64,000 nt of DNA from an uncultured Thermoleophilia bacterium. Lineage in GTDB: Bacteria; Actinomycetota; Thermoleophilia; UBA2241. A model generated the notes under the pieces. It was not told the DNA's origin. It saw only the letters and a list, made by a program, of their open reading frames with translations, and did not search any database. The stretch covers positions 24,631 to 88,630 of the forward strand of contig CAVUBA010000005.1 in the NCBI GenBank assembly GCA_963739595.1. Direction: 5' to 3'. A program made the position numbers and the translations under genes. Each line of letters opens with the position of its first letter. The first letter of the stretch is position 1. Of the stretch, positions 3,061-51,881 are shown in pieces.

Positions 3061-4468
3061 ATGACGAAGATCCTGACGAGAATGGGTGACAACTCGAACG
3101 TCGAGTTCACCAGGGACGAGCTCCGCCAGGAGTTCATCGACGGGTCGGAGTTCGCGGCCAAGAAGGCCAAGGTTCCGCCTCTGACCGAGAACGAGATCGA
3201 CTGGCTGGTCGACATGTTCGCTGCCCCGACGCGCATCTGGGGAGTGGAGCGTGGCCACGAGGTCGTCATGACCAAGGACGGGTGCGTCAACGCGCTGAAC
3301 TCGTCGCAGATGTCCAGCGGCGTGGTCGCGCCGGTCAACCGTGAGGTCGGCGTGCGTCTCTTCGAGTCGATGCTCGGCTTCGACTCCATGGAGATCTCGC
3401 ACAACGACTACTCGGTGAAGCCGCAGCGCTTCCTCAAGAAGCTCGAGATGCTCCATGTCGAGATCCTGCAGGAGACCACGATCTTCCCGCTGCTCTACGG
3501 GTTCATGCCGAACCTCGGGCCTGTACTTCAAGACCGACGGTCCCTTCGACAACCCCTACGACCTCATGCAGCAGGGCAAGATCAAGGAGTCGCAGGAGAC
3601 GCAGGAGGCGGCCGGCGCCAAGTGCCTCGAAGACTGCATCGAGATGAGCGACTGCATGGTCGAGATGGGCGCCGACGGCATCGACTACGACACCGTGGCG
3701 TCCACCGGCGACGGTGAGTTCGCTGCGGTACTCAAGAGCACCGAGCACGTCGCCAAGGAGACCGGCATGCCGGTCGAGATCGGCATGTCGACCGAGATGG
3801 TGACCGGCATCCACGGCACCATCGAGTACAACGGCAAGAGACTGGCCGGCATGTGGCCGCATCAGCAGCTGCAGGTGTGCGAGGAGGCCGGCGTCGCGAT
3901 CTTCGGCCCGGTCAGCACGACCAACACCAAGAAGTCCACGCCGTGGAACCTCGGCAAGGCGCTGGTGTTCGTCAAGTCGTGCACCGACATCGCCAAGGTG
4001 CCGATCCACCCGAACGTGGGCATGGGCGTCGGCGGCGTGCCGATGTTCGAGACCCCGGCGGTCGACGTCGTGACCCGCTGCAGCGCGGCCATGATCGAGA
4101 TCGGCAAGGCCGACGGGTTGTAGGTGGGTACTGGTGACCCCGCCGGCATGCACATGGCGCATCTGTTGGCCTCGTCCATGGGCGGCATCAGGGCAGCGGG
4201 AGATCTCGTTGCTCGTATGCAGCTCAGCAAGAAGATGAGGATCGACGAAGCCAAGAAGTACGTCGCCGACAAGCTCCACGTGACCCCGCGGGACCTCAGT
4301 GATCCCTACACGATGCGGCTTCTCAGGGAGGAGCTCGACATCGGGACGATCACGGGCGTCCCCGGCGTGGCCAAGGGCATCGCCGCCAAGGCGCGCATCG
4401 CCCAGCTGCTCGACATCGAGATCAACTGCGTCGAGCAGTTCAAGAACAAGACCGGACTGCACTACTGA
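3061..4468 (+). CDS. mtbB: dimethylamine:corrinoid methyltransferase MtbB homologue with in-frame TAG (putative pyrrolysine) and one 1-nt insertion
   Basis: ATG 3061 lies 10 nt after GGAGGG. Three ORF pieces (3043.., 3455..4123, 4124..4468) join into about 468 aa collinear with MtbB (...[24 protein letters not shown]..., ...[13 protein letters not shown]..., ...[23 protein letters not shown]...AAGDLVARM...). An extra C at about 3520 shifts the frame. TAG 4121-4123 is in frame. Confidence 0.85.
4121..4123 (+). other. in-frame amber codon, candidate pyrrolysine codon
   Basis: ORF 3455..4123 and ORF 4124..4468 share one frame and are separated only by this TAG. MtbB-like conservation continues for 114 codons after it. 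Confidence 0.8.
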
Positions 4469-11850: not shown

Positions 11851-11893
11851 GACGCCGGGGGCGGCGGCGCGCAGCGCCGCCGCCCCCGGCGTC
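11851..11893. terminator. perfect 19-bp hairpin between convergent genes
   Basis: GACGCCGGGGGCGGCGGCG (11851-11869), loop CGCAG, then the exact complement (11875-11893). It sits between the dodecin stop and the stop of the minus-strand gene at 11894. Confidence 0.6.
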
Positions 11894-13208
11894 TCACCGG
11901 TCCTCCGGCTCCGGGTCGCGCCGATGGTGGCGCAGCTGGTCCAACCGGCGCCTCGAGGCGAACACGCAGTCGGTCTTGACGGCCTCGGCGGCGGCTACGT
12001 CCCTGGCGAGGACCGCGCACGACGGCGCGCCGCAGAGCCCACAGTCGTAGCCGGGCAGCGAAGCCGCGATTCGTTCGGCCTCCTTGTGGCGCCGCACCCG
12101 TTCGCGCAGATCGCCGACGACGACGCGTGCTCGCGTGGCAGGAAGGGGCGTTCGATGCCGAAGTCGGCCGCGGGATAGCGGCGGGCCACCTCGGCCTCCG
12201 TCAGCGGGTCGGTGTCCGGAAGCTCGGCCATCAGCAGTTGCAGCTTCGCCTGGGACACGTACACGTTGTCCACGGTGAGGTTGCCGTTGCAGCAGCCGCC
12301 CCAGCAGGCGTTCGCCTCCAGGAAGTCGATGTCGCGCAGCTTGCCCTTCTCGATGTCGTCGAACACGCGGATCACGTTGGGCAATCCGGTGACGGCCAGG
12401 TAGCGGTGATGCTTGAGAAGCTCGGCGAGTGGCCGGCGCGTGGACCAGCGCAGCATGATGGATGAGCGGACCGGGTGCTGAGCCGCGATGGGAATCGCGC
12501 CCTCCGCGGCCTCGCGGGCCGCGCTCAGCACGCTGTTGTACAGCTGGGGGATGCCGATGGCGCCGTCCAGGCAACTGCTGCCACCCTCGGCCGGCTGGAG
12601 GATCGACACGGTCCGCGCCTGGCACGGCGTGACGTAGATCGCGGCGATCTGCTCGGGATCGAGGCCGAGCTCTTCCGCATAGCGGCGCTTGACTTCGCGC
12701 CCTGCGACCTCGCGCGGCGGGCGGATGCGGATCGCCTGTTCGAGCATGCGCGGGTAGGAGACCTGCATGAGGCGCACCACGACCGGCGCAGGCGATGGAG
12801 ATCACCGGCCGCGGTCCGTCCCAGTGGTCCATGTAGTCGACGATGGCCTGCGCCACGAGTCGCGTGTCCACGCCGTAGTCCCACACCGCGTCGAAACCGA
12901 CGGCCAGCAGACCCTGGGCGATGTCCTCGGGCTTCACGTCCAGTGGGAACTGGCCGTACAGCACGGGAGACGGGATCGCGACCCTGAACGCGTATCCCTC
13001 GAAGTCCTCGAGCGTGCGCGTCGTAGGCGCGAACACTCCCCGCGTGCAGGCGGTGAGGCAGGAGCCGCAGTCGATGCACAGCTCCCGCTTGACCACGCGC
13101 CTTGCCATTCGTCACGCGGATCGCTTCGGTGGGGCAGACTCGCATGCAGGCGAGGCAGCCGTCGCAGCGCGACGCGTCCATGGTGAACCCGTGCGCGTAC
13201 TCAACCAT
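11894..13208 (-). pseudogene. [FeFe]-hydrogenase-like Fe-S protein (large-subunit C-terminal domain type), about 3 frame breaks
   Basis: N-terminal 4Fe-4S ferredoxin motifs (CDGCLACMRVCP, CIDCGSCLTAC), a hydrogenase-like core (...VTPCQAR..., ...LEANACWGGCCNG...) and a C-terminal CGLCGAPSC motif. Pieces lie in ORFs 12525..13208, 11894..13108 and 11995..12780, switching near 13105, 12780 and 12115. Confidence 0.65.
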
Positions 13209-13638
13209 CGCTGTCCAACCTGATTCGGCTCACGACGACGGTACCCCCGTTCACGTCGGAGCGGAGTTCGAAGCTGTCCGAGTTGCGCCGGATGTTCGGC
13301 AGGCCCATGCCGAAGCCGAACCCCATCTCGCGCATCTCGTCAGTGGCGGTGGACCAGCCCTCTTGCATGGCCAGGCCGATGTCGGGGATGCCCGGGCCGC
13401 GGTCGTCCATCTCGATGGTGATGTCCTCGTCGGTGATCGTGAGCGTGAGCTTGCCCTCGTCGGCGTACATCACCACGTTCATCTCGGCCTCGAACACGAC
13501 GACGACGGCGCGGCGGACGAGCGCCGGGTCGAGCTCGAGGCTCGTGAGCAGCGACTTCACCTCGGTGGACGTCTCGCCGCCCTTGTCGTAGTCGCGACCG
13601 TGGACCCGGAAGCAGCAGCCGAGCAGCTCTTCAGCCAC
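13201..13638 (-). CDS. GHKL/HATPase_c-type ATP-binding protein (anti-sigma-factor-kinase-like)
   Basis: GTG at 13638. Contains ...DDRGPGIPD... and ...GFGFGMGLPNI... motifs typical of histidine-kinase-like ATPases. This is the usual partner of DRTGG proteins in hydrogenase-type clusters. Confidence 0.65.
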   Translation of the reverse strand: MAEELLGCCFRVHGRDYDKGGETSTEVKSLLTSLELDPALVRRAVVVVFEAEMNVVMYADEGKLTLTITDEDITIEMDDRGPGIPDIGLAMQEGWSTATDEMREMGFGFGMGLPNIRRNSDSFELRSDVNGGTVVVSRIRLDSDG

Positions 13639-13639
13639 G

Positions 13640-13985
13640 CTACATCGCCCCCTTGAGGCCGGCCTGGTAGAGGATGCCACAGCAGTCGAACATCCCCAGG
13701 TCGGTCGCCGAGCACGGGGATCCCGCTGTCGTGGGCGAGCTGGAGGACGCGCTCCTGGGGGCGCTTGCCGCGTACGTAGACGATCGCGTGGACGTCGGCT
13801 ACGACGGCGGTGCGCACGGACTGGATGTTGGTGAGTCCGGTGAGCATGAGCGCGTGCGGGCAGTGGAACGCGAGGATCTCGCTCATGCCGTCAGAGGCGA
13901 CGACGGCCTCGACCTCCACCTCCGCGCCGTCGCCGCTGTCGAGCAGCTCGCAGCCGAGGGCGGCGGCCACCTCGTCGAGCCTCAT
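13640..13985 (-). CDS. DRTGG domain protein (frame break near 13710)
   Basis: ...ALMLTGLTNIQSVRTAVVADVHAIVYVRGKRP... After one indel the frame continues TDLGMFDCCGILYQAGLKGAM to TAG at 13640-13642. Confidence 0.6.
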
Positions 13986-13991
13986 GGCCGC

Positions 13992-16256
<2,265 letters not shown>

Positions 16257-16273
<17 letters not shown>

Positions 16274-18779
16274 GGTCCTCCAGTCGGGAGCGTACCGGAC
16301 CGTCTGCGGCCGTCACACGCACACGCAGCGGCCTGGCCGGCAAGCGCGCGAGCGCGTCGAGGCGCTCACCTGCGGCCAACCCGCCCCAGGCCGCTACGCG
16401 GACCGCATAGACCGCTCCTCGGGGGCAGGCTGGATCGGGCCGCACGGGCGCGACCACGAGGTCGCCGCCCAGATGGATGCCCACGTCGCCGTCCGGCCCG
16501 ATGCCCAGCCGGTCGAGGTCGCGGGGGTGCATGCGCACGCCGCGTTCCAGGTCGAGTTCAGCGAGACCCTCGACGACGGCGCTCAGGTCCGTGCCACGAT
16601 GGCGGAACGCCGCGCGCTCGGGGACCAGCGTGAAGCGGCCCCTGCCGGGAGCCGCCGTCTCAGCCGGTCGGCGTCGTCGTGGCAGCGGTGTCATGCGCCG
16701 TCGCGCCCGGTCCCCCCCGCGCGGAAAGGCGGGCGCCTCGGCGCGGATCGCGCGCCGCACCGCCTCGGCGTCCGCGTAGCTGAGGTCCGCGCGGCCGAGG
16801 CGATGCGCGATCCCGGACAGGATCGCCCAGTCCGGCAGCGGACCATCGTGCCCGGCGCTTGCCGCGGAGTGCTCGACCGGGCGCAGTTCCTGCACGCGGC
16901 CTTCAAGGTTCGTCAAGGTGCCTCCGTCCTCGGCGAACGAGGCGGCCGGCAGGAACGCGTCGACCGGGAACGGCGGCAGGTACAGGTCCTGGGCGATCAG
17001 GTAGTCGCAGGGGGGGCGTTCGGCGAACGGCGCCTCGCCGATGAGGTAGAGCACGGCGGGTCGTCGGCCGGCCCGGAGGCTCGCCAGGTCGAACGGCCTC
17101 CGCCGCGCTGCGGGCTCCCAGCGGGGGCCCGGCAGCACGCCGGCCAGCGCCCCGAGCTCGAGCGCGCCGCGCGCGTTGGCGGCGTGCGTCAGCGGCACGA
17201 TCGTGATGGCTGAGTCCCTTGCCAGGAGCTCGAGCTCGGCCAGGAGTCCATCGGCGCCGGCGCAGTCGAAGGTGCGCGGCCCGAGCACGATCGCCGGAGC
17301 CTGCGCCCGCCGGAGTTCGGAGGCCGCCGCGACGACGGCGTCGTCGCGGCCGTCAAGGGGCCGGCGCGAGTCCCGCCGGCGAGCGCGTCCGCAGCAGGCG
17401 CGCGAGCGCTGCGGCCTCCTCACCGGGCGGTGGGCGCAAGTCATGGTCGGCCACTCGGGACAGGGTCGTCTCGCGAGCGTCGACGGTCACCAGCCGCGCC
17501 CCCCGGCGCAAGGCGCGGCGCACCTGCACGCCTGCGACGGAGAACGCGTAGCGTGGGTCGAGGCCCGCGACGATGGCGAGGTCGCAGGTGGCGACGCCCT
17601 CGATCGACACGGGCAGGGCGAAGAGTCGCGACCAGGCTCCCGGCCCGCCCGGCAGGTCGTCGCGTACGGTCGAGTCGACGCCGCGCGCCGAGAGCCCCTC
17701 GCGAGCCAGCCGCTGCGCGGCGAAGAGCGCCTCGTTGGGCAGGTCGCCGCCCACGAGCACGAGGACGTCCTCCGGGCGCGCGCTCATCAGCTGCGCGCTC
17801 ACCGCGGCGAGCGCCTCGTCCCAGTCGACGATGCGGTCGTATCGCCCCTTGCGCAGCATCGGGTCGGCGCGCCCTCGACGGATGCTGCGTCGTCTCGGGC
17901 AGGCAGAACCGGCCGCGCAGGCACAGCTGTCCGTCGTTGAGCTCCGGGTCACGGGCGCCGCTGGACGGAGGAGAGCCGGCCCCCTGCATGCGCCAGTTCG
18001 ACTTGACAGCCGAGGGGGCAGAGAGGGCAGGTCGAGACGGCGACGCCGTCGGGCGCGCCGTCCCACTTGGACACCTTGTCGGCGAGCGCGCCGGTGGGGC
18101 AGACGGACACGCAGGCCCCGCAGAACTCGCACCCGGCCGCCTCGTGCGACCTGCCGAAGGCGGGGCCGATGAGGGTCCGCGGCCCCCGGTCGATGAAGGC
18201 GAGCACGCCGGCGCCTCGCACCTCAGCGCACATGCGCACGCAGCGGCCGCAGAGGATGCAGAGGTTGTAGTCGCGGTCGTAGAACGGCTCGTCGTGTTCG
18301 GGCTCGAGTCCCCGGTAGGCGACCGGGTGACCGGCCCACTCGACGCCGACCGACTCCGCCACCTGCTGCAATTCGCAGGCGCCGTCGCGCGGACAGGTCC
18401 GGCAGCCGGTCGCGACGCCGGCCTTGCGGATGGTCTGCTGCGTGCGCCGGCAGTCGTCCTGTTCGCCGCACACGAGGCAACTCGAGGGGTGCTGGGAGAG
18501 GAGGAGCCCGAGGATCTGACGGCGTTGCTCGCGCAACCCTGCCGTGTCCGTGATGACGCGCATGCCCTCGGTCACGGCCGTGCTGCAGGCGAGCGGGTAC
18601 GGCTTCGTCCCTTCGATCTCGACGGCGCAGAGCCGGCAGCCGCCGAACGGTGTCAGCTCCGGGTGCGAGCAGAGCGCCGGCACGCCGACGCCGGCAGCTT
18701 CCGCCGCACGCAGCACGGTGGTGCCGGCGGGCACCACCACGGCGTGGCGGTCGATCTCCAGGCGCACGTCAGGCGACAT
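16257..18779 (-). pseudogene. NuoG / formate-dehydrogenase-alpha-like Fe-S and molybdopterin-oxidoreductase-family subunit, about 3 frame breaks
   Basis: The N-terminus has a 2Fe-2S motif ([19 protein letters not shown]) and 4Fe-4S motifs (CILCGRCVRMC, CEFCGACVSVCP, CPLCPLGC). It is followed by NDGQLCLRGRF and molybdopterin-oxidoreductase-like sequence in ORFs 17441..17989, 17353..18132 and 16257..17444. Confidence 0.7.
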
Positions 18780-20700
18780 GGTCGGCTCCCGAGGCGATCA
18801 CGATGGCGTCGCCGGCGATCGCGTCGAACCGGCAGACCTCGTAGCAGGAGCGGCACTTGATGCATTTCTCCGGATCGAGGTTGTGGGCCTCGGCGCGCGG
18901 GCCGGTGATGGCGCCCGTCGGGCAGACCTGGACGCAGCGCTGACAACCGGTGCACCTGCCCGGGATGATGCGGTAGGTGACGAGATCGCGGCAGACGGCT
19001 GCCCGGCAGCGGCGGTCGACGATGTGCTCGACGAACTCGCTGCGGAAGTACTTGAGCGCGGTCAGCACCGGGTTGGGGGCCGTCTGGCCCAGCCCGCACA
19101 GCGAGCTGCGTTTCACCACGCGAGCGAGCGTCTCCAGCTTGTCGAGGTCGGCGAGCTCGGCCTTGCCCCCGCAGATGGCGTCGAGGATCTCGACGAGGTG
19201 GCCGGTGCCGATGCGGCAGGGCGCGCACTTGCCGCACGACTCGTCCTGGGTGAAGCGGAGGAAGTAGCGTGCCGTGTCGACGATACAGGTGTCCTGGTCG
19301 AGGACGATGAGGCCGCCGGAGCCGAGGATGGAGCCGGCGGCCGCCAGGTTCTCGTAGTCCAGCGGGGTGTCGAGGAACTCCTCGCCGAGGCAGCCGCCGG
19401 AGGGCCCCCCCGTCTGCACCGCCTTGAAGCCCTTGGCGACGCCGCCGCCGATGTCCTCGATGACGCGGCGGAGCGTCGTGCCGAACGGCACCTCGATCAG
19501 CCCGGTCCTGCGGACCTTGCCGACGAGGCTGAACGTCTTGGTCCCCCGCGAGGTCTCGGTGCCGCGGGTCGCGTACTGCTCCGCGCCGCCGTTCACGATC
19601 ACCGGGAGGGTCGCGAGGGTCTCGACGTTGTCGATGATCGTCGGCATCCCCCAGAGACCGGACTCGGCGGGGAAGGGCGGCCGCGTACGCGGCATGCCGC
19701 GCCGCCCCTCCAGGCTGGCGATCAGCGCCGTCTCCTCGCCGCAGACGAAGGCGCCGGCGCCCTGCTTGACGGCGAGGTCGAAGGAGAAGCCGCTGCCGAG
19801 GACTGTCTTCGCCAAGGAGGCCGAGGCGCCTCATCGCGACGATCGCCGTGCGCAGGCGGCGGATCGCCAGCGGGTACTCGGCGCGGATGTAGATGAATCC
19901 CTGCTCCGCGCCGATCGCGTAGGCGGCGATCAGCATGCCCTCGAGGACGGCGTGCGGATCGCCCTCGATGAGCGAGCGGTTCATGAAGGCGCCCGGATCG
20001 CCCTCATCGGCGTTGCAGATGAGGTACCGCCGGGCGCCCTCCGCCTCGCGGCAGGCCTGCCACTTCCGCCAGGTGGGGAAGCCGCGCCGCCGCGACCGCG
20101 AAGCCCGGCGATCTTGACGAGGTCGACTACGTCACCCGGCGACAGCGCGAGGCAGCGCTCAAAGGCGAGGTAGCCGCCGCGCGCCAGGTAGTGGTCCACG
20201 ACCTCGGGGTCGACGAGGCCGCAGTCGCGAAGCACGAGACGGGTCTGCGGCGCCAGCATCGGGTGGTCGGCGAAGCGGGCGACCGTGGCCGGCGGCTCGG
20301 CGCCGTCCTCGCCCGGCTCGTCCCGGCCCCCGAGGGCGTCACGGTCGAGGGAGCCGACAAAGTGACTCGACGGCGTCTCGCCGGCCAGGAGCGCGTCGAG
20401 CGTCTTCACGGCCAGCTCGGGAGTCATGTTCGCGTAGCTCAGCCGGGGACGCCCCGGCAGCTGCACGTCCAGCAGCGGCTCGAGGTAGCAGGGGCCGATG
20501 CAGCCGACGGTGACCACGCGGGCCTTGACGTCGCGGGCGGCCAGGTGGGCGCGTGCGGCGCTGAGCACCTCGCCGGCGCCGGCCGCCAGACCACAGGAGC
20601 CGAGTCCTACGTACACCACCGGCGTCCGCCCCGCGTGCAGGGCTTGCCAGCGCCGTCCGGCGAGGCGGCGGCGGCGCTCAAGAGTGCGCGTCGCGGGCAT
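18769..20700 (-). pseudogene. NuoF-like NADH-binding flavoprotein subunit (HydB/BfuB-like), about 2 frame breaks
   Basis: [16 protein letters not shown] (one G missing near 20095), ...[25 protein letters not shown]..., ...[19 protein letters not shown]..., ...[10 protein letters not shown]..., and C-terminal 2x4Fe-4S motifs ([23 protein letters not shown]). The second break is near 19812. Confidence 0.8.
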
Positions 20701-21139
20701 CCAGGAGCTCCTGCAGCTTGAGGACGCTCATCTGGCCGTAGATGGCCTCGTCCAGCGTGAACACGGGCGCGAGGGCACAGCACCCGAGACAGGCCACTCG
20801 CTCCAGGTCGTACTCGCCGTCGGGCGTCGTCTCGCCGGCACCTATGCCGAGCCGCCGTTCGAGCGTCTCCATCATCTGCACGCCGCCCTGGACGTGGCAG
20901 GCGGTGCCGAGGCAGAGGCGCAGCCTGTGGCGACCCGGTGGCGTGAAGCGGAACTGCGCGTAGAAGGTCGCCACGCCGAAGACCTCGTTCTCCGTGAGCC
21001 GGAGGTCATCGGCGATGCGACCAACCGCCTCCGGCGACAGATAGCCGAGGGTCGCCTGGGCGCGCTGCAGCGCCGGCACGAGATCGGACCGGTCGCGGCG
21101 CACGCCTCTCGGGGTGCCCGGCCGGAGATCGGCCGCCAC
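20678..21139 (-). CDS. NuoE-like 2Fe-2S thioredoxin-like subunit (HydC/BfuC-like)
   Basis: Intact 153-aa ORF: ...ALQRAQATLGYLS..., ...FYAQFRF...CLGTACHV..., ...VACLGCCALAP... Confidence 0.85.
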   Translation of the reverse strand: MAADLRPGTPRGVRRDRSDLVPALQRAQATLGYLSPEAVGRIADDLRLTENEVFGVATFYAQFRFTPPGRHRLRLCLGTACHVQGGVQMMETLERRLGIGAGETTPDGEYDLERVACLGCCALAPVFTLDEAIYGQMSVLKLQELLDARDAHS

Positions 21140-21151
21140 CGGGACCTCCCG

Positions 21152-21481
21152 TCACCTCATGCCGAGGTCGAAGAGCTTGAGGGCATAGGCCCAGGTGTCG
21201 TCGCCGGTGCAGAACAGCGGGATGTTCACCCGTCCGGCCAGGTCGAGCACGTCGTCCGCGGGGCGCTTGCCGTGACCGAACACGATCATCCCCGCGTCGA
21301 CGACGTTGGCGGCCGCGATGAGGTTCTTGTGTGTCTGCAGCGTGAGCAGCAGGCATCCCGCCGGGGCGCCGGTGATGATGTCCGAGGCCATGTCCGAGAC
21401 GTACACCCCGGGGATGTCCCCGTCCTCCCAGGCGCCCAGCGCCTTGAGTCCGGTCTTCTCGACGATCTCGGCCATGTTCAC
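21152..21481 (-). CDS. DRTGG domain protein
   Basis: Intact 109-aa ORF: ...CLLLTLQTHKNLIAAANVVDAGMIVFGHGKRP... It is a paralogue of the gene at 13640-13985. Confidence 0.7.
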   Translation of the reverse strand: MNMAEIVEKTGLKALGAWEDGDIPGVYVSDMASDIITGAPAGCLLLTLQTHKNLIAAANVVDAGMIVFGHGKRPADDVLDLAGRVNIPLFCTGDDTWAYALKLFDLGMR

Positions 21482-21518
21482 GGCTTCTCCCCCCTCGTGA
21501 GGTCTCGTGGGCGCCCGT

Positions 21519-22059
21519 TCACAACTCGATCAGGCCGGCGTCGCTGATCACGATCCCGCGGCAGCAGTCCGCGTCGCTGCGCATGCGGCACGGCACGACG
21601 ACGATCCGTCCTGCGTCCCGGGCGCCGGCCCTGGTTGAAGTACTCCTCAAGCGCGGCGACCCCGTCGTCGCTGACGCAGCGCCCCGACTCGTGGGTCGAA
21701 TCGCCGCACAACGCCACGTAGATGGAGGCCTGGTCACCCAGCCGGAGCGCGAGCCCTCCGACCTGGCACTCGGGATCGGCGCAGAGGGACATCATCAGGC
21801 CGGTCATGGCACTCAGGTCGGCCGCCCGGCCGCACGTGTCGCAGCGCAGGCCGAACTGGACCGCTTGATCCCCGGACAGGTACTCCCAGATGTGCGGGCC
21901 GTCGCGGTACTCGTCGATGGGCGCGACGGGCTCGGTGGAGAAGAATGAGCTGCGGGCACCGCAGTGGTAGCAGCCCTCGACGACGAGGAATCCGCCGTGT
22001 ACGTCGGTCATCGACCAGTAGTGGTCGCAGGTGCTCTCGGATCGCGGCCTCTGATCCAC
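21519..22059 (-). CDS. Cys-rich hypothetical protein, first gene of the redox cluster (frame break near 21600)
   Basis: Zinc-ribbon-like pairs (CDHYW..CYHCG, CDTCG). The C-terminus continues in the frame of ORF 21519..21737 (...VVVPCRMRSDADCCRGIVISDAGLIEL). Confidence 0.45.
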
Positions 22060-22165
22060 GTCTCCGGCTCCCCGATGGCCCCGGACCCGCCCCTGCGGGT
22101 GAGGGTGCTACTGACAGAGTAGCCCACGGCGGGCGGATTGGAACCTGGAATCGCCGTTGGTCGAA

Positions 22166-50390: not shown

Positions 50391-51881
50391 GCCGCGCCCA
50401 CTCGCACGACTTCCCGGCCGCGGCTCGCGAGGCGCTCGCCGACGCACAGCTGCGCGCCAACTTGCGCGGGGCCACGCAGACGATCCGCGCCCGCCGCGCC
50501 GCAGCCATCGCGGAGCTGCCGGACTTCGAGGAGCTCCGCGAGCAGGCGCGGCGCGTCAAGGACGACGCGCTCGACCGGCTCGACGAGCTGCTGGACGAGT
50601 TCCAGGCGGCCGCCGAGGCCGCCGGCGCGCGCGTGCACCGCGCGCCGGACGCGGCCGCCGCCAACGACATCGTCGCCGGCATCGCCCGCGACCACGGCGT
50701 CACTGAGCTCGTCAAGATGAAGTCGCTGGCCACCGACGAGATCGGCCTCGACGCCGCGCTCGCGGCGGCCGGCGTCGAGGCCGTCGAGACCGACCTGGCC
50801 GAGCTCATCGTGCAGCTGGCCGGCGACACTGCATCGCACATCCTGGTGCCGGCCGTCCACTACAGCCGCGGCCAGGTCCGCGACCTCTTCCTGCGCACCA
50901 TCGCGCGCGGGCAGGAGCTCTCCGACGACCCGCACGTGCTCGCCGAGGTCTCCCGCCTCTATCTGCGCGAGCGCTTCCTGCGTGCCGGGATGGGCGTCAC
51001 CGGCGCCAACGTCGGCGTCGCCGAGACCGGCACGGTCTGCGTGGTCGAGAACGAGGGCAACGGTCGCATGTGCACCACGCTGCCGCCGCTGCTGGTCACC
51101 GTCATGGGCATCGAGAAGGTCGTGCCGACGCTGGACGATCTCGCGTTGCTGCTCCGCCTCCTTCCTCGCTCGGCGACCGGCGAGCGCATGAGCTCCTACG
51201 CCTCGCTGCTCACCGGGGTGACGCCGGGCGACGGGCCGCAGGAGTACCACATCGTGCTGCTCGACAACGGCCGGACGAACGCGCTGGCCGACCCCGTCGG
51301 GCGCCAGGCGCTCTGCTGCATCCGCTGCAGCGCCTGCCTCAACGTGTGCCCGGTCTACACGCGCGTGGGCGGGCACGCGTATGGATCGATCTATCCCGGG
51401 CCGATCGGCGCCATCCTGACGCCGCAGCTGTGGGGGATGGAGCGGTACGCCAAGCTGCCGTTCGCGTCGTCGCTCTGCGGAGCCTGCGCCGAGGTCTGCC
51501 CGGTCGGCATCGACATCCCCGAGGTGCTGCTGTCACCTGCGGGCGCGGGCCGTGCGCGAGCAGGCGCCCGCGCCCGAGAAGGCCGCGTTCGGGGTCGCGG
51601 GGTGGGTCTTCGGCTCGCCGCGGCGCTTCGCCGCCGCGCAGAAGGCGGGGAGGGCCGCCGAGCTGCCGCTCGAACGCGGCGGCCTCGTGCGCCGCCTGCC
51701 CGGCCCGTTCGCGGGCTGGACGCAGGGGCGCGACCTGCGCCCGGTGGCGCGCGAGACGTTCCGCGAGTGGTGGGCGCGGGAGCGCGGCGCCGGCCCGGGC
51801 GTGGCCTGCGCGGCGGACGGCGCTTGCGAGAGCGGCCCGGCCGTGGATGACGCTCGCGAGCGTGGGGAGGAGGCGCCGTGA
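50387..51881 (+). CDS. lutB: L-lactate utilisation protein LutB (4Fe-4S, DUF162) (frame break near 51531)
   Basis: GTG overlaps the lutA stop (GTGA). ...GVTGANVGVAETGTVCVVENEGNGR..., CIRCSACLNVCPVY and CGACAEVCPVGIDIP motifs. The tail (HLRARAVREQAPAPEK...) is in the frame of ORF 51552..51881 after an inserted T. Confidence 0.85.

Follow-up and report, generated by a model that had tools for sequence, protein, structure and literature searches.

Clustered frame breaks in a redox operon of a Thermoleophilia metagenome-assembled genome: very probably consensus errors of assembly rather than gene decay

A 64,000-nucleotide stretch of a metagenome-assembled genome (MAG) from an uncultured Thermoleophilia bacterium, hereafter the window, carries a minus-strand redox gene cluster (11894–22059) whose reading frames are interrupted about five times more densely than those of the rest of the window. 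The cluster encodes NuoEFG-like, NfnAB-like and [FeFe]-hydrogenase-like proteins. Its breaks are very probably single-base consensus errors in a noisy metagenome assembly, lying in one of about 50 poor patches, and not the result of operon decay. The window corresponds to C5:24631-88630 of the MAG (G000), which comprises 2.31 Mb in 39 contigs, has a GC content of 71% and is rated 66.6% complete with 0.6% contamination. Positions are given in window numbering unless a contig is named.

The preliminary description had counted by hand about 18 frame switches in the cluster. We called breaks in two ways. The reference-free caller was a six-frame Viterbi decoder with a dicodon model whose training set was the long open reading frames (ORFs) of this genome with high GC content at third codon positions (GC3); switching out of a frame before a stop codon incurs a penalty. 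The caller made 17 frame-switch calls in 11894–22059, or 1.67 per kb, and 26, or 0.48 per kb, over the 53.8 kb outside it. Where neighbouring genes overlap, this decoder can make false calls (16307 and 34006 are examples), and it overlooks breaks with a stop soon after them (17385 and 17960); the comparison within the window is therefore based on homology counts. These came from protein-to-DNA dynamic programming with explicit frameshift moves against the intact orthologues of G067 and G068; by construction, this aligner sets skips at codon borders. Both references are truly syntenic relatives (72–73% GC), each with an intact cluster; they share gene order with the MAG up to about 31 kb into the window and, beyond that, in rearranged blocks. 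Syntenic orthologues were located by searching with the hydrogenase-like gene. Loci of relatives chosen via a nuoF fragment (L011–L022) were paralogous, with different neighbours, and were dropped as references. Plain counting of tblastn high-scoring segment pairs was also abandoned because gapped pairs bridged shifted segments, nuoF appearing as a single one.

Frameshift-aware alignment to both relatives gave 20 solid single-base breaks in the cluster: three in the hydrogenase-like gene, one in the DRTGG gene, eight in nfnB, two in nfnA, three in the nuoG-like gene, two in the nuoF-like gene and one in the Cys-rich gene. The genes for HATPase and nuoE are free of them. The manual counts per gene agree with this distribution except for nfnB, where about six had been proposed. 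Events that both references backed, or on which one reference and the Viterbi decoder agreed, were merged and normalised by aligned length, which left 19 in 9.78 kb of the cluster (1.94 per kb) and 14 in 37.5 kb elsewhere (0.37 per kb). The excess, put at about fivefold by eye, persists under a frameshift-aware aligner at 5.2-fold (binomial p = 3.9e-6). It does not depend on nfnB, without which the cluster still has 1.44 merged breaks per kb (p = 0.001). The long genes that had been named as intact elsewhere in the window, encoding the APC permease, the fused diol dehydratase, SulP, MttB and the ABC transporter operon, were all confirmed to be so.

Seventeen of the 20 cluster breaks are one-base insertions, and codon-level alignments to both relatives show those in nfnB as an extra G or C within otherwise conserved codons. 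The one-extra-base type also accounts for 80% of the 1,387 Viterbi calls in the whole MAG. Individual indels singled out earlier at 3520 and near 20095, 52808 and 59855 were recovered by Viterbi decoding and by alignment, and the one near 51531 by Viterbi decoding only, at a position with no reference coverage. Some of these had been placed in short G or C runs; the sites themselves stand, but as a general pattern this fails, since homopolymers lie no nearer to breaks than to random positions. Around the 33 localised breaks (±4 nt), the longest run averages 2.1–2.3, against 2.33 at random sites (p = 0.89), and the genome-wide calls likewise lack an association with homopolymers. GC and 3-mer composition barely predict call density (cross-validated Spearman 0.13–0.15); for the central cluster bins (C5, 36–44 kb), the composition model predicts 1.2–1.4 calls per 2 kb, and up to seven are seen. 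Distance to contig ends bears no relation to call density. Low GC3 or foreign codon usage was rejected as a cause of the patches, the dense genes having a native GC3 of 0.93–0.99. Selenocysteine or pyrrolysine codons mistaken for breaks were discarded as well, as correction leaves no in-frame stop in any protein of the cluster.

The cluster is not unique in its genome. Calls occur at 0.60 per kb across the MAG and affect 36% of its 2,226 genes, 28 of which carry at least five; 3.2% of all 10.2-kb windows of the genome hold at least 17. Among the most broken genes are those for ComEC (10 calls), FtsI/PBP2 (seven) and an ABC1 kinase (six). Two genes present in two copies on different contigs differ sharply between copies, namely enolase (eight versus zero calls) and formate–tetrahydrofolate ligase (FTHFS; eight versus two). 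The calls are over-dispersed, with a variance-to-mean ratio of 2.8 at 10 kb and an autocorrelation that is lost by 5 kb. As had been argued from the six breaks then seen in one gene, a uniform error process is insufficient: a two-state Poisson hidden Markov model (HMM) with rates of 0.43 and 2.05 per kb improves the log-likelihood by 112 over a single rate. The dense state comprises 51 segments, which cover 7% of the genome with a median length of 2.5 kb, and 11870–16370 is among them.

Further insight came from comparing the MAG with itself. About 177 kb consist of contig pairs that are 92–98% identical in nucleotide sequence within the bin (C32/C38, C1:23584-31486/C14:58152-66076, C3/C4, C23/C39 and C2:26244-27823/C24:56993-58556), C38 and C4 being duplicated elsewhere almost entirely. 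Two close populations thus seem to have been binned together, despite the contamination rating. In the duplicated pairs, the dense stretch lies in one copy and the other is clean, with 19 versus 4, 4 versus 19, 20 versus 5 and 8 versus 0 calls per copy. The dense members have 1.6–5 calls per kb and the clean ones 0.3–0.6, rates that resemble those of the cluster and its flanks, respectively. Since a patch can be dense in one copy and clean in a twin of 92–98% identity, the density belongs to the piece of assembly and not to the gene or its sequence.

These results can be accommodated by a simple scheme. The MAG was probably assembled from long reads. Two close populations would have been co-assembled, and parts of the contigs would be built from few reads or from those of the minor strain and so receive a poor consensus; such patches would then accumulate random one-base indels in a depth-dependent manner. 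The lack of a tie to homopolymers, GC, 3-mers or contig ends is what would be expected if the errors were random and dependent on depth. We infer that few reads, or those of a minor co-assembled strain, underlie the patches, and low or mixed read support would, by analogy with the duplicated contigs, be the specific cause at the cluster. Consensus indels that cause frameshifts, and that become fewer at higher coverage, are documented for long-read assemblies, and random errors lying outside homopolymers are of a sort that disappears with depth (PMC9262707).

That the operon is genuinely decaying had been proposed beside local low read support, and four independent tests speak against it. Decay is expected to bring nonsense codons, deletions, relaxed dN/dS (the ratio of non-synonymous to synonymous substitution rates) and the loss of invariant residues, and gene decay in bacteria is deletion-biased. 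No in-frame stop was found in about 3,300 corrected codons of the cluster proteins, nor any large deletion in the cluster; length differences from the relatives are confined to in-frame ones of 3–12 nt. The suggestion that selection might be relaxed was not borne out: the corrected cluster genes give dN/dS values of 0.11–0.29 against G067 and G068, the same genes give 0.10–0.25 between these two intact genomes, and flanking genes behave like the cluster. nfnB, which has the most breaks, is also the most constrained (0.13–0.15). Of 245 alignment columns in which at least 97% of 120 homologues agree, the corrected NfnB departs from the shared residue in one, the same number as the median intact homologue, and this single column adjoins a break site. 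The deletion bias expected of decay is not seen, the spectrum being dominated by insertions. In the comparison with related genomes, which had been recommended, G067, G068 and G069 proved to have unbroken orthologous clusters and G075 a nearly unbroken one, with a single break in nfnB and another in nfnA. Had nfnB been dead long enough to gather its eight frameshifts, it would be expected to have nonsense codons, deletions and changes at invariant sites as well; none of these is seen. On the four tests, we reject decay.

Several observations nevertheless weigh against consensus error as the source of the breaks. The cluster has no second copy of at least 80% identity in the MAG, and the clean-twin argument reaches it by analogy with other patches. 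Among 5.8 billion database proteins there was no near-identical intact copy of NfnB, the best reaching 91% identity. The branch leading from the cluster to G067 and G068 is somewhat long, in synonymous and non-synonymous changes alike, and the dense stretch approximately follows the borders of the operon (first break at 12128, last at 21609), as decay would predict. A further point comes from G015, an independent MAG of another species in the same genus (93% complete, seven contigs). Its orthologous nfnB-nfnA-nuoG-nuoF-nuoE module (contig C3 of G015, about 120290–126800; locus L039, 4789–11300) has 44 frameshifts along about 6.5 kb (nfnB 6, nfnA 5, nuoG 15, nuoF 16, nuoE 2), minus-one events for the most part, against a background of about 0.17 calls per kb in eleven control stretches (1–6 Viterbi calls per 20 kb). 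The module is thus a frameshift hot spot in this genome too, hinting at a cause tied to the locus.

Other features of G015 bear on how this recurrence is to be read. Its break positions and types differ from those of G000, and the hydrogenase-like, HATPase and Cys-rich genes next to the module are clean. The hot stretch starts within nfnB and stops within nuoE, and borders inside genes look technical. No near-identical second copy of the module was found in G015. The analysis covered about eight MAGs bearing the cluster, and dense patches make up several per cent of genomes of this kind, so that one coincidental overlap between G000 and G015 is not improbable. Alternatively, the biology of the locus might make nfnB-nfnA-nuoG-nuoF-nuoE a recurrent hot spot, as a strain-variable or mobile module or, less likely, through repeated inactivation in separate lineages; this appears unlikely to us. 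Were the module strain-variable or mobile in Thermoleophilia populations, assemblies would see it at low or mixed depth.

The possibility that there is no real enrichment, and that breaks are simply easier to recognise in well-known redox proteins or fell together by chance under a uniform rate, drew on the manual nature of the first counts and on the dependence of detection on recognisable homology. It has already been refuted and its probability is practically nil: a reference-free caller and a length-normalised aligner both give a 3.5- to 5.2-fold excess, the binomial p value is that given above, and the genome as a whole is over-dispersed and far better described by two states. Pseudogenisation, in which the lineage would have lost the function of the operon and accumulated real frameshifts, would explain why about five times the flanking density extends over roughly the whole operon and why the orthologous module of G015 is heavily broken too; the hydrogenase-like gene was found in just 21 of 89 genomes of the family, a patchy distribution, so the operon could be dispensable. 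Nonetheless, the cluster has neither nonsense codons nor large deletions, its dN/dS matches the low values of intact relatives and reaches its minimum in the gene with most breaks, its invariant sites show no excess of change, and its events are mostly insertions. Patches just as dense also occur in housekeeping genes and affect FtsI, ComEC and, for the duplicated enolase and FTHFS genes, one copy of each, and in duplicated contigs the patches are confined to one copy. We regard pseudogenisation as highly improbable.

A systematic error dependent on sequence, whether through homopolymers, extreme GC, a methylation motif or mis-recruited reads of paralogues that defeat the basecaller or polisher, would account for a module that is dense in two independent MAGs. 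It also finds ground in the several nuoF-like and nfnB-like paralogues of both G000 and G015, and in the 1.5-fold call rate of genes in the top GC3 octile. Against this stand the homopolymer context, which equals that of random sites; the weak correlations with GC and 3-mers, whose predictions fall far below the calls observed; the different positions and types of the breaks in the two MAGs; and near-identical duplicates of which one copy is dense and its twin clean. Near-identical paralogues were rejected as a cause, as neither genome has any, the paralogues sharing just 68–75% DNA identity. Such an error appears quite unlikely here. Our preferred explanation remains that random errors entered the consensus where the assembly was poorly supported, and the operon of the organism itself would, judging from the corrected sequence, be intact and functional as a NuoEFG-like, NfnAB-like and hydrogenase-like flavin/Fe-S module.

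The hot core of the cluster is the nfnB/gltD-like gene (13988..15435; all genes described here are on the minus strand), whose product belongs to the NADPH-dependent glutamate-synthase small-chain family. Its eight one-base insertions lie at 15195, 15182, 15007, 14913, 14810, 14716, 14559 and 14033, and the corrected protein matches that of G068 at 87% identity and the best of thousands of database homologues at 91%. Upstream of it, the nfnA-like gene (15441..16245), for a flavin adenine dinucleotide (FAD) and Fe-S subunit of the PyrK/SudB type, is broken at 15841 and 15537. The nuoG-like gene (16260..18797; about 845 aa), for a subunit of the molybdopterin-oxidoreductase type, is broken at 17960, 17860 and 17385, and its corrected product contains the Pfam domains Fer2_4, NADH-G_4Fe-4S_3, Molybdop_Fe4S4 and Molybdopterin (1–340 of 353). 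Two breaks, at 20084 (−1 type) and 19804 (+1), interrupt the nuoF-like gene (18772..20727; about 650 aa), in which Complex1_51K (1–149 of 150) is whole after correction only. The nuoE-like gene for a 2Fe-2S thioredoxin-like ferredoxin (20696..21142) is intact.

At the other end of the cluster, the gene for an [FeFe]-hydrogenase-like/Fe-S protein (11897..13214; about 438 aa when corrected) is broken at 13095 (+1), 12787 (+1) and 12128 (−1 type) and is 73–75% identical to its orthologues in G067 and G068. The corrected protein contains Fer4, Fe_hyd_lg_C and PF04060, and Fe_hyd_lg_C (residues 77–308) is detectable after frame correction only. In the uncorrected 404-aa ORF, relatives match in three pieces and two frames; the middle 220 residues are out of frame, yet the reading stays open. 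High GC thus hides frameshifts from ORF-based annotation. The same effect of correction is seen across the cluster, where raw ORFs divide domains between frames (Complex1_51K and Fer4_20 each over two ORFs, the molybdopterin domains separated) and the corrected proteins have full-length Pfam domains. Between the hydrogenase-like gene and nfnB lie an intact gene for a histidine-kinase-like ATPase (HATPase_c; 13204..13638; 145 aa) and a gene with the Pfam domain DRTGG (13643..13988), which has one break at 13709, supported by the G068 alignment and a Viterbi call at 13703.

Two further genes stand at the head of the operon. A conserved gene of 122 aa (21155..21520) showed no break and matches ORFs of the relatives at 60–65% identity in tblastn; its product has no Pfam family. 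The gene for a Cys-rich protein (21522..22134; about 200 aa), conserved in relatives and also without a Pfam family, has one solid break at 21609 and two more N-terminal events, at 22072 and 22092, which are doubtful.

Outside the cluster, the stretch 3061–4465 (mtbB/corrinoid-protein) is 98–100% identical in protein sequence to G067 and G068, with a synonymous divergence (dS) of 0.05–0.11. The genes beside it have dS values of 0.3–0.6 and identities of 53–90%. This pattern suggests that the pyrrolysine-type methyltransferase cassette may have been exchanged recently among these species.

The indel spectra differ within the genus, 80% of the calls in G000 being of the one-extra-base type and those in the G015 hot stretch mostly lacking one base, which points to different sequencing or polishing histories. 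Several few-contig MAGs of the genus (G011, G012, G013, G016, G064, G074 and others) are only 64–72% complete and have nuoF homologues split between frames. Frameshift-rich assemblies seem to be common among the public genomes of this genus.

The frame-break excess is very probably a feature of assembly quality and not of biology, and it serves mainly to warn about the quality of this MAG. Roughly one in three of its genes is probably broken by consensus errors, and the bin seems to mix contigs of two populations that are 92–98% identical. Claims of gene loss, pseudogenes, recoding or odd domains in this genome need a prior check on frame-corrected sequence, and the same caution applies to similar low-completeness, few-contig MAGs of the genus. 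In functional analyses, the redox cluster should be annotated as intact, reading through the frameshifts.

Decaying operons occur in reductive genomes such as the pseudogene-rich Mycobacterium leprae. The G000 cluster resembles them in having many frame breaks gathered in one functional unit, but differs from them in its lack of nonsense codons, deletions, relaxed dN/dS and lost invariant residues. As to the type of operon, we take it to be a NuoEFG-like (HydABC/Hnd-type) NADH–ferredoxin module combined with an NfnAB-like transhydrogenase and with HATPase, DRTGG and Fe-S accessory genes. The corrected cluster shares with such modules NuoE, NuoF, a NuoG-like protein with molybdopterin domains, GltD/NfnB-like and PyrK/NfnA-like proteins, and also the HATPase_c and DRTGG proteins and the one containing Fe_hyd_lg_C. 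Unlike in the HydABC/Hnd type, the large subunit has a molybdopterin-oxidoreductase domain and not an H-cluster domain.

Regarding the assembly, G000 is similar to strain-redundant or mosaic contigs with haplotig-like duplicates, in that error-dense stretches alternate between the copies of its duplicated pairs, as expected if a minor, low-depth strain contributed parts of the consensus. The redox cluster departs from this pattern, as it has no twin in the bin, and it would belong to a minor-strain path only by analogy with the other patches. Frameshift-causing consensus indels are known from genomes and MAGs assembled from long reads (Nanopore/PacBio; Sereika et al. 2022, PMC9262707), and the frameshift corrector proovframe is aimed at them (bioRxiv 10.1101/2021.08.23.457338). 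The breaks of G000 differ from classical long-read errors in being unassociated with homopolymers, 80% insertions and strongly patchy. They share with long-read consensus indels their form and their consequences: isolated one-base indels truncate conserved genes throughout the genome and lower its apparent completeness, the errors are expected to drop with coverage, and reference proteins can correct them.

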